Positions 54,801 to 63,800 of a stretch of DNA of 64,000 bases are shown here, piece by piece (the stretch's first letter is position 1; every line of letters starts with the position of its first letter). Origin of the DNA: Escherichia coli (GTDB lineage: Bacteria > Pseudomonadota > Gammaproteobacteria > Enterobacterales > Enterobacteriaceae); NCBI RefSeq assembly GCF_036507355.1, contig NZ_AP027877.1. One strand, written 5' to 3'. Made by a program: the position numbers.

Positions 54801-57800
54801 ACTACATGTCGCACGAGCAGGACTGGCAGGAGTTCCGCGACGCAATTCGCATCACCCGCGAGATCATGCATCAACCGGCGCTGGATCAGTATCGTGGCCG
54901 CGAAATCAGCCCCGGCACGGAATGTCAGACGGATGAGCAGCTCGATGAGTTCGTGCGTAATCACGCCGAAACCGCCTTCCATCCGTGCGGTACCTGCAAA
55001 ATGGGCTACGACGAGATGTCCGTGGTTGACGGCGAAGGCCGCGTGCATGGGCTGGAAGGCCTACGCGTGGTGGATGCGTCAATTATGCCGCAGATTATCA
55101 CCGGCAATTTGAACGCCACGACAATTATGATTGGCGAGAAAATAGCGGACATGATTCGTGGACAGGAAGCGCTGCCAAGGAGCACGGCGGGATATTTTGT
55201 GGCAAATGGGATGCCGGTGAGAGCGAAAAAATGAGTCGTGATGTGAACTAACGCAGGAACCGATCAGATTGAGAGTTACCGTTCCAGAGAGGGGGGCTGA
55301 ATCCTTATATAAACACTGAGGTAACTCTCATGCTTCATAGTGACAACCTCGCCAGCAAATTCTAAGCGGACTCGTTCAATCTGGCTGATGAAGGTGCTAT
55401 GAATGCACTGATAAACCGCAGGTGAAATGCCACTCAGCTTAAGAATTACGCCGCTAGTGTTCCTGGCTATGGTGACTTGTTCACTCCCGCTCACGGTTAG
55501 CATATACGAAAAGGGTTCTTGAAACGAGGACAAAAATAAGTCAGACCAAAACAACGTGGAGCTTTAAACACGATTCGTATAATTTATTAGCAGTGATTTA
55601 TTTTTACTCTTCTTTAGTTAATCATCATGCTTAAATATTTTTTAGCACAAGATTATCGCTTCGCTAACATTTTAGTTTACATTGATTTCCAATTGATAAT
55701 AAAAAGTTGTTAATAAGTTTATGCGAAAAATAAAAATTGTTGAAATACTCTCCAGCAAACGAATGCAAAATAAACAAACTGAGGTTTACAAAAAAACAAA
55801 AGCTATTCAAAAGAACATTTTTAATTTATTAGCAGAGTTCATTAACAATGGTTTACTCACGACCAGAAAATTAAAGAACACCTTGCAATAATATGTATTT
55901 ATAAATTCATATCATTGATATTAAACTAATCTCACCTTCTACCTTATAATTTCACCAACCAAAAACAAAAGAAAAATCAATTAGATACACAATAAAGCGT
56001 TCTCGCAAGAAATAATGTCAAATATCTCAAACTAATAAAAACAACTAAAACATTAGACGTAACACACATCCCACACGACCTGTCGCTCATAGCTTTTATA
56101 TTTATTTTTTCACATCAATGTAGATAAAAACACGCATTAAAAATGATTTGTAGAAAAGCTGCACAATAAATAGTTCATATTTAATCTGTTGCGTAGAACT
56201 ACTATTCAAAAAATCTTATTAATGAGATAATGAGATTACATCGATAACGTTCTGATGGCAGGCATACTTATCTGGGTGTGCCTCTTTTTTTTACAACTGT
56301 ACACGGTGGCGTATGACGAGAAAATATCTCACACAGGATGAAGTCTACAGGCTGATGGATGCAGCCCAGAGCATGTCCTTTCCTGAAAGAAATCGCTGTC
56401 TAATTATGATGGCTTTCATTCACGGTTTTAGGGCCAGTGAACTTCTTGATTTACGTTTATCCGATATTGATGCATCAGGAAAACAACTTAATATTCGGCG
56501 TATTAAAAATGGTTTCTCGACGACACATCCTCTTCTTCCTGATGAATATAATTTGATCAAGTTGTGGCTTAAGCAGAGGAAGTTAATTGAAAACGGAGTT
56601 GAAGGAGACTGGCTTTTTCTCTCCCGGAAACGCCGCCCTATCAGCAGACAACATTTTTTTTCTATCATTCGTGAGGCTGGAAAACGTGCAGGATTTGAAT
56701 CGCCACGGATAATCTAGACACTTCCGAGCCGTTGATAATACTGGTTTTCATATTCTGTCGGTGACATCTGATCGCTGGAACCATGCCGACGCTTACTGTT
56801 ATAAAACATTTCGATGTAATCAAAAATATCGCTGCGGGCTTCTTCCCGCGTTCCGTAGATCTTTTTCTTTATCCGTTCGCGTTTCAACAACTGGAAAAAG
56901 CTTTCTGCAACCGCATTATCATGGCAGTTACCGCGACGGCTCATGCTGCCATCCAGGCCGTGTGATTTCAGGAACGACTGCCACTCATGGCTTGTGTACT
57001 GACTGCCCTGATCCGAATGAACCAGCACCTGTTTTTGGGGATTACGGCGCCATACAGCCATCAGCAGTGCGTTCAGGACAATGTCCTTTGTCATCCGGGA
57101 TTGCATGGACCAGCCGATAATTTTGCGTGAGAACAGATCAACAACCACGGCAAGATACAGCCAGCCTTCGTGGGTCCTGATGTAGGTTATGTCCGTTACC
57201 CAACGCTTATCCGGAGCATCCGGATTGAACTGTCGCTGGAGCCTGTTGGGCGACACGATACTGGCCTCGCCTTTACGTGCCCGCGGGCTCCGGTATGCGC
57301 GAGGTTACCGACTGCGGCCTGAGTTTTTTAAGTGACGTAAAATCGTGTTGAGGCCAACGCCCATAATGCGGGCTGTTGCCCGGCATCCAACGCCATTCAT
57401 GGCCATATCAATGATTTTCTGGTGCGTACCGGGTTGAGAAGCGGTGTAAGTGAACTGCAGTTGCCATGTTTTACGGCAGTGAGAGCAGAGATAGCGCTGA
57501 TGTCCGGCGGTGCTTTTGCCGTTACGCACCACCCCGTCAGTAGCTGAACAGGAGGGACAGCTGATAGAAACAGAAGCCACTGGAGCACCTCAAAAACACC
57601 ATCATACACTAAATCAGTAAGTTGGCAGCATCACCGCCATCTTAAATGACTCTGAGGTGTCTGTTAAACCCGTGGCGATTCAATTGCCTGCAAAAGGAAC
57701 AACTAAAAAGCTGGTTTAGTGCCGTGCGTAGCCTCAATAATCCTATTGCATCGGCCTATCTCCAAGTACTTTTGCTCACTGGTGCTCGGCGTGAAGAAAT

Positions 57801-60800: not shown

Positions 60801-63800
60801 TACCTTCGTCTCAAATTTAGATGTTGGATAGGTATTATATAATGATATAATGGCATTGTGTACTCTTACTACCTGTATTCACCAGTAAGAGTAGTAATCA
60901 GATCAGTATGTCCGTACTAAAATCTGATACCAGTATATACCGACAACAGTGACCAGGAATAGCCCTGCCTGTATGGCATCCCTGTACGGTCTGCTATAGA
61001 CCGTAGGACCAAATACAGGTATATATTATGAAAACATATCAAGGTACTCATGGAGTACATATCCTCGAATATCAGAGTAAGATTAATAAATTATTATGTT
61101 ATTTGACTAACCGGTATCCTAGGTTAATTGCTGTACGTGTCGATCTCCACTATCCCAAAATAGTTGATAACGGTGACAATATCTGTTGCTTCCCTAACCT
61201 GGAACCTGGGGTGATATCCCGGATGCGTGAATCCCTCAGAGCTAAGCTGGAGGCTGACCGTACCCGTAAGGTGCGTGAGGATAAACGCATTTACCGTTGC
61301 CCTTTATTTATTATATGGGCGAAAGAGTATTCTGAATCAGGTAAATGCCACTATCACATTTGCCTGTTGTTCAACAAAGACGCTTACTACCACCTCGGGG
61401 ATTACGATCAGGACGATAACCTTAGAGGGATGATCACAGGAGCCTGGTACAGCGCCCTGAGACTGGAGAGAGACGATCACCCTGGTCTGGTCCATTTTCC
61501 TGAAAACTGTAAGTATGTGCTAGACACCAATAGTACTGACTTCCAGCAGAACTACCAGGCGCTGTTAACCCGACTGGACTACCTGACCAAAGTTGAAAGC
61601 AAAGTGTTTGGTGAAGGAGACCGTAACTTCGGCTGTAGCCAAATCGAACTGTAAGTCGGTAATGGCCTTCTCAGTGAGAAGGCCTTAGTTGTATTGTTTC
61701 AAAAAATTACTAAAATGCAGTTTCGTTACGCAATTTTCTATAGATTACTGATAGTCATCAGCAAGTCCGCTACTAAATAACGTTTCTGCATTTTCAGCGG
61801 TAGCAACAGCATCCTGCACATCCTGCCGTTTCAAATCTAACACTCGTAATTTACCCTTTACTTCGGCGACAGATTCGATTCGCCTGTAAGCATCAGAATG
61901 ATGTTCGGCATATAGCGCAAGTCCTTCCAGTTTGGGCAAAGCATCAGCCAGATGTAGGCTATGTGGATCTACCAGGTCCACAACCATTTTGCCATCCTGT
62001 TCGGCAAAGAACAGGAAATCGGGACGAACAATCTTGTACTGTTCAGCTTCAACATAAGCGATTCCCAGTGACGACTGCCCTGTGTACTGTGGATTACGAT
62101 ACCAGAAAGCAAATCCTTCACGTTTGGTTTCGATCTCAAAAACCTTGGTTTCCCAATGGTTCAACAGAGCCGGATAGTTCCCGCTTTCGTCACACAACAA
62201 ATGGTGTTTCCAGACTGGAAGGTCAGCTTCCTTTTCACCTTCACGCACCCTGGTCATTTCAAACTTGTTCGCCGGCCTGACCAGATCCACATCCTGCGGT
62301 TCGGTACTCATTTCGACGATTTGACGATAGGCCTCTTTACGCTCATCTTTCAACGACTTGATTTGCGGTGTGTACTCGGCCAGCCACGCCTTCGCCAGTC
62401 TATCGGCCTCGCCATCGAAGTAATCCTGCCCCTCCATCACCAGCCCCATGCCAGCAACGGTAACACGAGCCTCCATGATTGCTTCCAGATATTCCTCTGC
62501 ATCCTCTTCTCGATCCGCAACCTTATCGGCCAGATATTCGACATAGGTACGTGAAACATCCGGGCTGAAAATTCGGTGATGCTGCCAACTTACTGATTTA
62601 GTGTATGATGGTGTTTTTAAGGTGCTTGCGTGGCTTCCATTTCCATCAGATGTCCTTCCTGCTCCGCTACTGAAGGCGTGGTGCGTAACGGCAAAAGCAC
62701 TGCCGGACATCAGCGCTATCTCTGCTCTCATTGCCGTAAAACATGGCAACTGCAGTTCACTTACACCGCCTCTCAGCCCGGTACGCACCAGAAAATCATT
62801 GATATGGCCATGAATGGCGTCGGATGTCGCGCCAGTGCACGCATTATGGGCGTTGGCCTCAACACGATTTTCCGCCATTTAAAAAACTCAGGCCGCAGTC
62901 GGTAACCTCGCGCATACAGCCGGGCAGTGATGTGATTGTCTGCGCTGAAATGGACGAACATTGGGGCTACGTCGGTGCTAAATCACGTCAGCGCTGGCTG
63001 TTTTACGCGTATGACAGGCTCCGGAAGACGGTTGTGGCGCACGTCTTCGGTGAACGCACTCTGGCCACACTGGAGCGTCTTCTGAGCCTGCTGTCGGCCT
63101 TTGAGGTCGTGGTATGGGACGGATGGCTGGCCGCTGTATGAATCACGCCTGAAGGGAAAGCTGCACGTTATCAGCAAGCGTTACACTCAGCGCATTGAGC
63201 GACATAATCTGAGACAACATCTGGCAAGGCTGGGACGGAAGTCACTGTCGTTCTCAAAATCGGTGGAGCTGCATGACAAGGTCATCGGGCATTATCTGAA
63301 CATAAAACACTATCAGTAAGTTAGAGTCATTACCGGGCCAAATCGATAAATCGCTCGATGAAGCCTCACTCAGCCTGCGCGCCGGTTCCCTGCGTACCAT
63401 TACGCACATCCTGCTGCCGCTGCTGCGCCCGGCGATCCTCTCGGCGCTGATTTACAGCTTTGTGCGCGCCATTACCACCGTCAGCGCCATTGTGTTCCTC
63501 GTCACGCCGGATACCCGCGTAGCGACGGCTTACATCCTCAACCGCGTGGAAGATGGCGAATACGGTGTAGCGATTGCCTACGGTTCCATTCTGATCGTGG
63601 TGATGCTGGCGATTATTTTCATCTTTGACTGGCTGATCGGTGAATCACGTACCTCCCGTTCAAAAGCCAAAAACCAGGCGTAATGGAGCGCACTATGACT
63701 CAGAAAAATTTCGTTGAACTGCGCAACGTCACTAAACGATTTGGCAGTAATACGGTAATCGACAATATCAACCTCACCATCCCGCAGGGGCAAATGGTGA

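Follow-up and report, generated by a model that had tools for sequence, protein, structure and literature searches.

The stretch of Escherichia coli DNA analysed here (64,000 nt of contig NZ_AP027877.1, hereafter the window) contains, between the bet genes and afuC, a series of island genes bracketed by two inverted copies of the insertion sequence (IS) IS1. Our results indicate that this interval is the integrase-proximal end of a thrW-type genomic island, annotated in K-12 as the cryptic prophage CP4-6, which has been inactivated and now lies between two independent IS scars; we put the probability of this reading at roughly 0.85. The right boundary is a defective IS1 whose junctions are inherited and shared with K-12, and the left boundary is an IS3-family element, carrying a fragment of IS1, that joins two different recombinase genes. 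Coordinates are positions in the window; feature limits were taken from the raw sequence, a repeat search and alignments to K-12, to WG1 and to a full-length copy of the IS3-family element, and searches of complete genomes covered 5,426 complete E. coli genomes.

The DNA between the two scars has the gene order of K-12. Positions 57683-62574 align to intF (from nt 812), yagN, ykgV, yagM, yagL, yagK and yagJ of K-12 with the order kept and with 99.6% identity over 4,892 aligned positions. On the plus strand, intF' (57683-58272), the 3' 590 nt of a P4-type integrase gene encoding the catalytic domain, with the first 811 nt gone, is followed by full-length copies of yagN (58389-58829), the AlpA-like ykgV (58826-59050), yagM (59169-60023), the resolvase-like yagL (60050-60748) and yagK (61028-61654), and a yagJ' truncated at its 5' end by the right-hand junction lies on the minus strand (61745-62574). 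The yagN-yagK block is 99.6-99.7% identical to those of K-12 WG1 and of strain TW01221, with equal gene lengths, and its sole indel is one of 8 bp in the yagL-yagK spacer (60837-60844). Family scans recognised an integrase catalytic domain (for the intF' product, PHROG integrase phrog_1, 2.5e-27), an AlpA/excisionase-like helix-turn-helix (HTH) protein, a resolvase/invertase-like YagL, YagK (Pfam YagK_YfjJ_C; a PHROG family of unknown function) and YagJ (Pfam YagJ). Both the synteny with CP4-6 and these scans bear out the gene list and the limits 57292-63334 given by an earlier reading of this DNA that used neither alignments nor databases (the sequence-only reading).

No phage structural or lysis genes were found in the interval, the PHROG matches being limited to an integrase, an excisionase-like HTH protein, a DNA invertase-like protein and one family of unknown function. 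Within 55-64 kb neither a tRNA nor a fragment of one was called, and no remnant of an attachment (att) site was detected there. The window thus shares synteny and identity over intF-yagJ with K-12 CP4-6, but not the intact tyrosine integrase and the tRNA-derived attachment site of that island, and with half an integrase and no att site the island is unable to excise. 'Integrative island remnant' is therefore a safer name for it than 'prophage'. The whole arrangement, from the left scar to the right one, was found in no complete E. coli genome searched.

At the right boundary, an IS1 of 760 bp (62575-63334, plus strand) separates yagJ' from afuB' (63335-63683, plus strand), the 3' 348 nt of afuB at the edge of a Citrobacter-like cargo block in which afuC starts directly afterwards (63695 onward, plus strand). 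This IS1 joins island backbone to cargo of probably foreign origin. The 9-mers that flank it differ, being TGAAAATTC at 62566-62574 and GGGCCAAAT at 63335-63343, and no 8-10-bp direct repeat is present on its two sides, so that the lack of a target-site duplication reported by the sequence-only reading held on re-inspection of the flanks. The 40 bases on each side of the element are identical to K-12, the left ones corresponding to the yagJ'-IS1C junction of MG1655 and the right ones to its IS1B-afuB' junction. In MG1655 CP4-6, these are the outer junctions of a structure that holds, in between, a second IS1 and an 11.5-kb segment (ykgS, argF, xynR, yagHGFE, yagA and yagB, with ISX and IS30B'), all of which is missing from the window; the four K-12 IS1 flanks show no duplication among them either.

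Two K-12 strains, WG1 and NCM3722, have a single IS1 between exactly the junctions of the window. Their order intF...yagJ'-IS1-afuB'-afuC is that of the window, both IS1 junctions are base-identical, and the flanks are 99.6-99.7% identical. They differ in the IS1 itself, which is a 768-bp IS1B-type copy with an annotated transposase, whereas the window has an IS1F-type mosaic of 760 bp in which insB is broken, and on the left, where K-12 keeps an intact intF, yagP and pao, whereas intF of the window is cut by the IS3-family element and fused to ipbA'. When the complete genomes were searched with 1,360 bp spanning the IS1, 41 of the 5,426 proved to have the two flanks with one IS1 in between. 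Among the 40 of these that were listed, seven matched in one piece and have the window's junctions (NCM3722, WG1, CY598, CY706, CY708, PD7 and MB06232), and 33 matched in two pieces with about 435 extra bases.

The longer form, here called junction A, was read directly in strains TW01221, 0H26 and Z142-6, in which yagJ is 427 bp longer and ends in ...caaggtattgac immediately before IS1. The afuB' junction of TW01221 and 0H26 is the same as in the window, without a duplication, and in Z142-6 the DNA to the right of IS1 is not afuB'. Natural isolates with junction A (for example TW01221, 0H26, CX21 and ECONIH4) resemble the window in that one IS1 separates yagJ from afuB', that the afuB' junction is unchanged and that a target duplication is lacking, but they are unlike it in their longer yagJ and in their IS1B-type IS1. 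Junction B, the yagJ'-IS1 junction of the window, is common to K-12, the window and a metagenome scaffold (L013). A scan of genome contigs for the window-specific form of the IS1-afuB' junction gave no match.

These comparisons show that the yagJ'-IS1-afuB' junction was inherited, vertically or horizontally, and is old and widespread, not a local event, and that its afuB' side is the older part, shared by all strains carrying the cargo block. The right IS1 has no target-site duplication because its two flanks, yagJ from the island backbone and afuB from the Citrobacter-like cargo, were never one target. An IS1 that stays in place while the DNA beside one of its ends is lost is the signature of an IS1-mediated adjacent deletion, and that such a deletion has occurred is indicated by the strains in which the afuB' junction is the same but yagJ extends 427 bp further. 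By what is generally known of IS1, the yagJ side would have been cut back by these 427 bp in a one-ended IS1-adjacent deletion, a step shared with the K-12 lineage. The sequence-only reading had proposed IS1-mediated deletion or recombination in place of simple insertion; the unrelated flanks and the strains with the longer yagJ agree with this, but not as an event local to this genome, since the junctions are identical to those of K-12.

Alignment to K-12 confirmed a further point of that reading, namely that argF and its 11.5-kb segment are absent from the window, but this absence is the common state: in about 33 natural isolates, whose backgrounds are unrelated, one IS1 stands at the afuB' junction and argF is lacking. 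The classical view is that argF is a K-12-specific, IS1-flanked acquisition; searches of the available literature for the origin of the segment found nothing. The loss of the K-12 segment by recombination between IS1 copies is already published: the 11.5-kb deletion, by recombination between the two direct copies, recurred across 12 mutation-accumulation lines, and strain NCM3722 has it in fixed form (Lee et al. 2016, PMC5009759). In the WG1 genome paper, CP4-6 is said to be lost in WG1 (PMC9997739); the WG1 sequence itself (5190-13059 of the locus) retains intF-yagJ-IS1-afuB'-afuC-mmuMP, and what it lacks at this end of the island is the 11.5-kb argF segment alone.

The lineage of the window could in the same way once have had the K-12-type IS1-argF-IS1 arrangement and have lost the segment by direct IS1 x IS1 recombination, its history being otherwise as proposed here. 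The deletion is frequent in K-12, as the published lines show, both window junctions are the outer junctions of the K-12 two-IS1 structure, and junction B is found elsewhere only in K-12-like genomes and one metagenome scaffold. We nevertheless consider this history unlikely, as the window holds no trace of the argF segment and the single-IS1 state of the natural isolates is likely ancestral. Moreover, a crossover between IS1B and IS1C predicts an IS1B-type copy, and the IS1F-type copy of the window would therefore need an extra replacement step.

The right IS1 was called complete by the sequence-only reading, which is correct for its two ends and not for its body. The repeat search found one inverted pair, 57293-57636 and 62574-62917, of 344 nt and 92% complementary, in which one end base per arm is a chance match. 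Both inverted repeats of the right copy are present: the first 23 bases of the left one (IRL) are all identical to K-12 IS1, and 21 of 23 match in the right one (IRR), the mismatches to IS1B being at element positions 750 and 757. With 760 bp in place of the standard 768, the copy differs from K-12 IS1B/C by 60 substitutions, a 2-bp deletion and a 6-bp in-frame deletion, with an identity of 91.2% in the alignment. Its insA is intact (62630-62905, 91 aa) and the A6C frameshift motif TTAAAAAAC is present, but the 2-bp deletion splits insB' into open reading frames (ORFs) at 62824-63141 (105 aa) and 63101-63319 (72 aa). Without an unbroken insA + insB' frame for the InsAB' transposase, the copy is a member of IS1 by descent and is defective.

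It belongs to the divergent IS1F type and is 98.0% identical to 760-bp relics in CFT073, ATCC 8739 and other strains, which have the same 2-bp and 6-bp deletions and the same split insB; identity to K-12 IS1F, whose insB7 is annotated as a pseudogene, is 96.6%. All of these lie at chromosomal sites different from that of the window. In K-12, transposition of the non-consensus copies (IS1B, C, D and F) does not exceed ~1e-10 (PMC12428005), and neither IS1 of the window is able to transpose by itself. The yagJ' frame reads on, antisense, into the left end of IS1 for about 300 nt and forms a 377-aa ORF (61745-62878, minus strand) with a match to Pfam YagJ. An identical 377-aa protein is encoded on a metagenome scaffold (ERZ28596097, KUNK20-1 scaffold_3374); on that scaffold intF is still nearly full-length (441 aa called), and a further integrase lies upstream.

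In a site-by-site comparison, at the sites that separate the IS1F type from both IS1A and IS1B, the window copy has the F base at 55 of 64. Unlike IS1F and the CFT073-type relics, it also has IS1B-specific bases at 298, 301 and 304 and A/B-type bases at nine other sites (4, 40, 178, 210, 293, 345, 445, 447 and 452). The variant was found at this locus in no complete E. coli genome searched, all others being IS1B-type there. With flanks 99.6-99.7% identical and junctions identical, the 9% divergence is confined to the body of the IS. Within K-12, the IS1B type is confined to this locus (PMC12428005), so that the tract at about 293-345 seems to be what remains of an original IS1B resident. At this fixed site, most of the IS1 body may since have given way to, or recombined with, a defective 760-bp copy of the divergent IS1F type, presumably by ectopic gene conversion between IS1 copies that left the IS1B tract in place.

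Other copies at the same site are patchy as well. The IS1 of 0H26 (9728-10495 of its locus) is IS1B-type with an F-like patch at 609-704. That of metagenome scaffold L013 (reverse complement of 7076-7843) is the same as the window copy over its first 345 bp, IS1B-like at 357-573 and IS1F-like after 586, without the deletions, though this mosaic could be an assembly chimera. The locus may have preserved, in nature, the traces of ectopic gene conversion that acted in patches between IS1 subtypes, and so of concerted IS evolution without transposition, a proposal to which we give about even odds.

The left boundary is of a different kind and involves an element that the sequence-only reading did not include. 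A 1,230-bp-type IS3-family element on the minus strand spans 56696-57682 and encloses the IS1 fragment. Its larger piece (56696-57296, element positions 1-601) begins with the terminal inverted repeat TGAATCGCCACGG..., contains the 3' part of orfB (ORF 56714-57256) and is 99.8% identical to an element found in many E. coli chromosomes and plasmids, aligning to 1501-2101 of a locus with the full-length copy. The smaller piece (57636-57682) is a 100% match to the last 47 bp of that copy (2683-2729 of the locus) and ends in the other terminal inverted repeat, ...CCGTGGCGATTCA; in the repeat search the end of this piece forms a 14-nt perfect inverted repeat with 56696-56708. The C-terminal 180 aa of OrfB match NCBIfam transpos_IS3 (1e-76), and the Prokaryotic Genome Annotation Pipeline (PGAP) labels the element 'IS3 family transposase'. 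Element positions 602-1183, that is, orfA and the 5' part of orfB, are deleted, and the copy is a member of its family by descent but dead. ISEc52, which is annotated in TW01221, was tried as an identity for the element and rejected, there being no similarity.

Between the two pieces lies the IS1 fragment (57293-57635, minus strand), which runs from IS1 position 343 to 1, comprises only IRL and insA, and is identical to K-12 IS1A at 343 of 343 positions. At its internal join to the IS3-family element, the two sequences share the 4 bp GTAT (57293-57296).

On the betA side, the element abuts ipbA' (56313-56695, plus strand), the 5' two-thirds of a FimB-like tyrosine DNA invertase gene, the ORF of which continues in IS sequence to 56717. 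The gene is annotated beside betA in many strains, is known as a FimB-like recombinase gene of CFT073 (PMC8777976), and gives a truncated product matching NCBIfam tyrosine-type DNA invertase NF007370 (4e-39) at profile positions 10-134 of 200. In megablast searches, no genome matched with its annotated ipbA beyond 56695, where every such alignment ended. The ipbA'-IS junction itself is present in four independent public contigs, each with the same truncated 134-aa product and a break just inside the IS; two of them are 99.9-100% identical to the window, and two are only about 93% identical upstream of the junction, in the betA-ipbA spacer.

On the island side, homology to intF of K-12 and WG1 starts at 57683, which is intF nt 812, and only nt 812-1401 remain. 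The break sits at the end of the IS3-family element, and truncation of intF by IS1 was rejected for this reason. A 208-aa ORF (57646-58272) starts at an ATG within the terminal 47 bp of the element and fuses 12 IS-derived codons to the IntF catalytic domain; neither this exact IntF' fusion product nor the exact BetT is on record in the public gene collection. In TW01221, intF and betA are separated by about 31 kb (yagP', paoDCBA, yagU, ykgJ, ecp, ykgLOMR, fdeC, rcl and ykgEFGH), all of which is absent from the window. Neither of the left-hand junctions occurs in any complete E. coli genome searched.

The alignments thus show that at the left boundary the IS3-family element joins ipbA' to intF', and that the 5' half of intF, any att remnant and about 31 kb are absent. 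As the two flanks belong to two different recombinase genes, the left IS probably marks a deletion or recombination joint. An IS-mediated deletion, or recombination between two copies of the IS3-family element, would have fused ipbA' to intF'; an IS1 of IS1A type would then have inserted into the element, and a deletion of about 1 kb at the 4-bp microhomology would have taken IS1 positions 344-768 together with IS3-family positions 602-1183. A parallel is seen in 0H26, where the order is betA-hyp-IS1(-)-yagL'-yagK-yagJ-IS1(+)-afuB' and a second, inverted IS1 has deleted from the betA side into the island. The left scar there is a complete IS1 in yagL, whereas in the window it is an IS3-family element in intF that carries an IS1 stub. 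This parallel shows that the interval has been repeatedly eroded by IS elements.

Several observations weigh against the history proposed here for the two scars. The trinucleotide ATT stands on both sides of the IS3-family element (56693-56695 and 57683-57685), with the flanks in different genes; a chance match has a probability of 1/64, and the repeat could be a 3-bp duplication, in which case the IS would have inserted into a pre-existing ipbA'-intF' fusion and would not be its cause. No other assembly searched contains the joins inside the left complex (IS3-family/IS1/IS3-family/intF'), which are known from the window alone. In its island single-nucleotide polymorphisms (SNPs), the window is nearer to the junction-A strain TW01221 (6 mismatches) than to K-12 (13), though it shares junction B with K-12; this discord requires that the island has recombined internally or, with lower probability, that a deletion has reached the same site more than once. 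The direction of the replacement in the right IS1, from IS1B to IS1F or the reverse, is argued from parsimony and from the confinement of the IS1B type to this locus in K-12, and the sequence of events is reconstructed solely from their end states.

The two IS1 sequences have also been considered as a pair that, like the arms of a composite transposon or as substrates of recombination, would invert, delete or mobilise the 5-kb module. As the sequence-only reading described, two inverted copies do bracket the module, a partial one on the minus strand at the left and one with two ends on the plus strand at the right, and DNA lying between inverted IS copies is known to be flipped when these recombine (PMC5009759). 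Over the 343 bp that they share, the copies are 92% identical, the longest stretch without a mismatch being 44 bp, and they are of different subtype (IS1A on the left, IS1F on the right). Divergence at this level strongly lowers RecA-dependent exchange, by orders of magnitude. A composite transposon further needs two functional outer ends and a transposase from at least one copy. Here, the left copy consists of positions 1-343 only, with no IRR, insB or outer end, and its outer side is interior IS3-family sequence; both IRL tips abut and face the module, which is thus not bounded by outward-facing ends; and the right copy has a frameshifted insB and an imperfect IRR, to which is added the very low transposition of non-consensus copies cited above.

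A Tn9-like composite transposon or an invertible cassette was therefore rejected on the stub without an outer end, the inward IRL tips, the broken insB and the 92% identity, and we regard a functional pair as highly unlikely. The module has a single orientation relative to afuB' in every public sequence examined that carries it. The IS1 copies are an accidental inverted pair and not a device, and could at most invert the 4.9-kb module, rarely, without deleting or mobilising it. Of the earlier suggestion that they could promote inversion or loss, inversion stands as a rare possibility and loss does not, since exchange between inverted repeats flips the DNA and does not remove it. Finally, it is scarcely credible that the repeated IS1 and IS3-family sequences caused a mis-join and that the true arrangement differs: IS copies are a classic cause of mis-assembly, the left-hand junctions and the whole arrangement are missing from the complete genomes, and L013 has a differently chimeric IS1 at the same site, but the right IS1 is a unique variant within unique flanks that match K-12 exactly, the 377-aa yagJ'-IS1 ORF recurs unchanged in an independent scaffold, the ipbA'-IS junction occurs in four independent contigs, and the IS1 stub (343 bp) and IS3-family pieces (601 and 47 bp) are short enough for reads to span.

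The cargo to the right of the island, like the core to its left, has relatives of its own. The afuB'/afuC stretch of the window is 99.7% identical to K-12, in which the afuB'-afuC-mmuM-mmuP block is 98.6-98.9% identical in nucleotides to Citrobacter portucalensis A60, 92-93% to C. youngae and C. braakii, and 85% to the afu allele of E. coli strains whose operon is complete. A complete afuA-afuB is kept in 515 of the 5,426 E. coli genomes, at 84.5% identity to the Citrobacter gene. In TW01221, a Citrobacter-like block, mhpA'-mhpBCDFET-mmuPM-afuC-afuB', lies inside the thrW island with IS fragments on one side and IS1 on the other. Sequence identity thus suggests that the afuB'-afuC(-mmuM-mmuP) block may have been captured from, or exchanged with, Citrobacter.

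To the left, betT-betI-betB-betA occupy the window up to 55234 and are followed by the AT-rich betA-ipbA spacer of about 1 kb (55235-56312), in which imperfect inverted repeats occur, for example 55801-55825 and 56136-56160 (25 nt, 80%); the spacer could be an invertible switch served by IpbA. The yah-bet core (28000-56000) is 95.5-98.4% identical to ordinary E. coli, the best match among the complete genomes being 98.4%, and 99.96-99.98% identical to three draft assemblies (GCA_016660925.1, GCA_047852605.1 and GCA_905398585.1). With the core at most 98.4% identical to complete E. coli genomes but the island 99.6-99.7% identical to K-12, island and core have different histories. The DNA thus comes from an under-sampled lineage of E. 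coli type. The repeat search detected no IS copies as repeats in the remaining 56 kb of the window, which makes Shigella an unlikely source. The window contains intergenic repeats resembling repetitive extragenic palindromes and bacterial interspersed mosaic elements (REP/BIME) at 36869-37232, 17305-17492 and 11036-11102 / 14497-14563, the first being an array of three tandem 93-bp units whose copy number varies among related draft assemblies.

Our findings describe the ordinary IS-mediated decay of a known island and indicate no new mechanism or function. The feature combines the already documented, inherited CP4-6 IS1 junction with a lineage-specific IS3-family/IS1 scar that probably removed half of the integrase gene and its neighbours. 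For annotation, the right IS1 should be marked as defective, the IS3-family scar recognised, intF and ipbA treated as pseudogenes, and the 'prophage' recorded as an island remnant. Only one feature is mildly unusual, namely an IS1 at a fixed site that is a mosaic of subtypes, which, if its proposed origin is true, could interest those studying the concerted evolution of insertion sequences. The locus adds a natural example to the well-documented IS1 erosion of CP4-6 and of the betA-thrW interval in E. coli.

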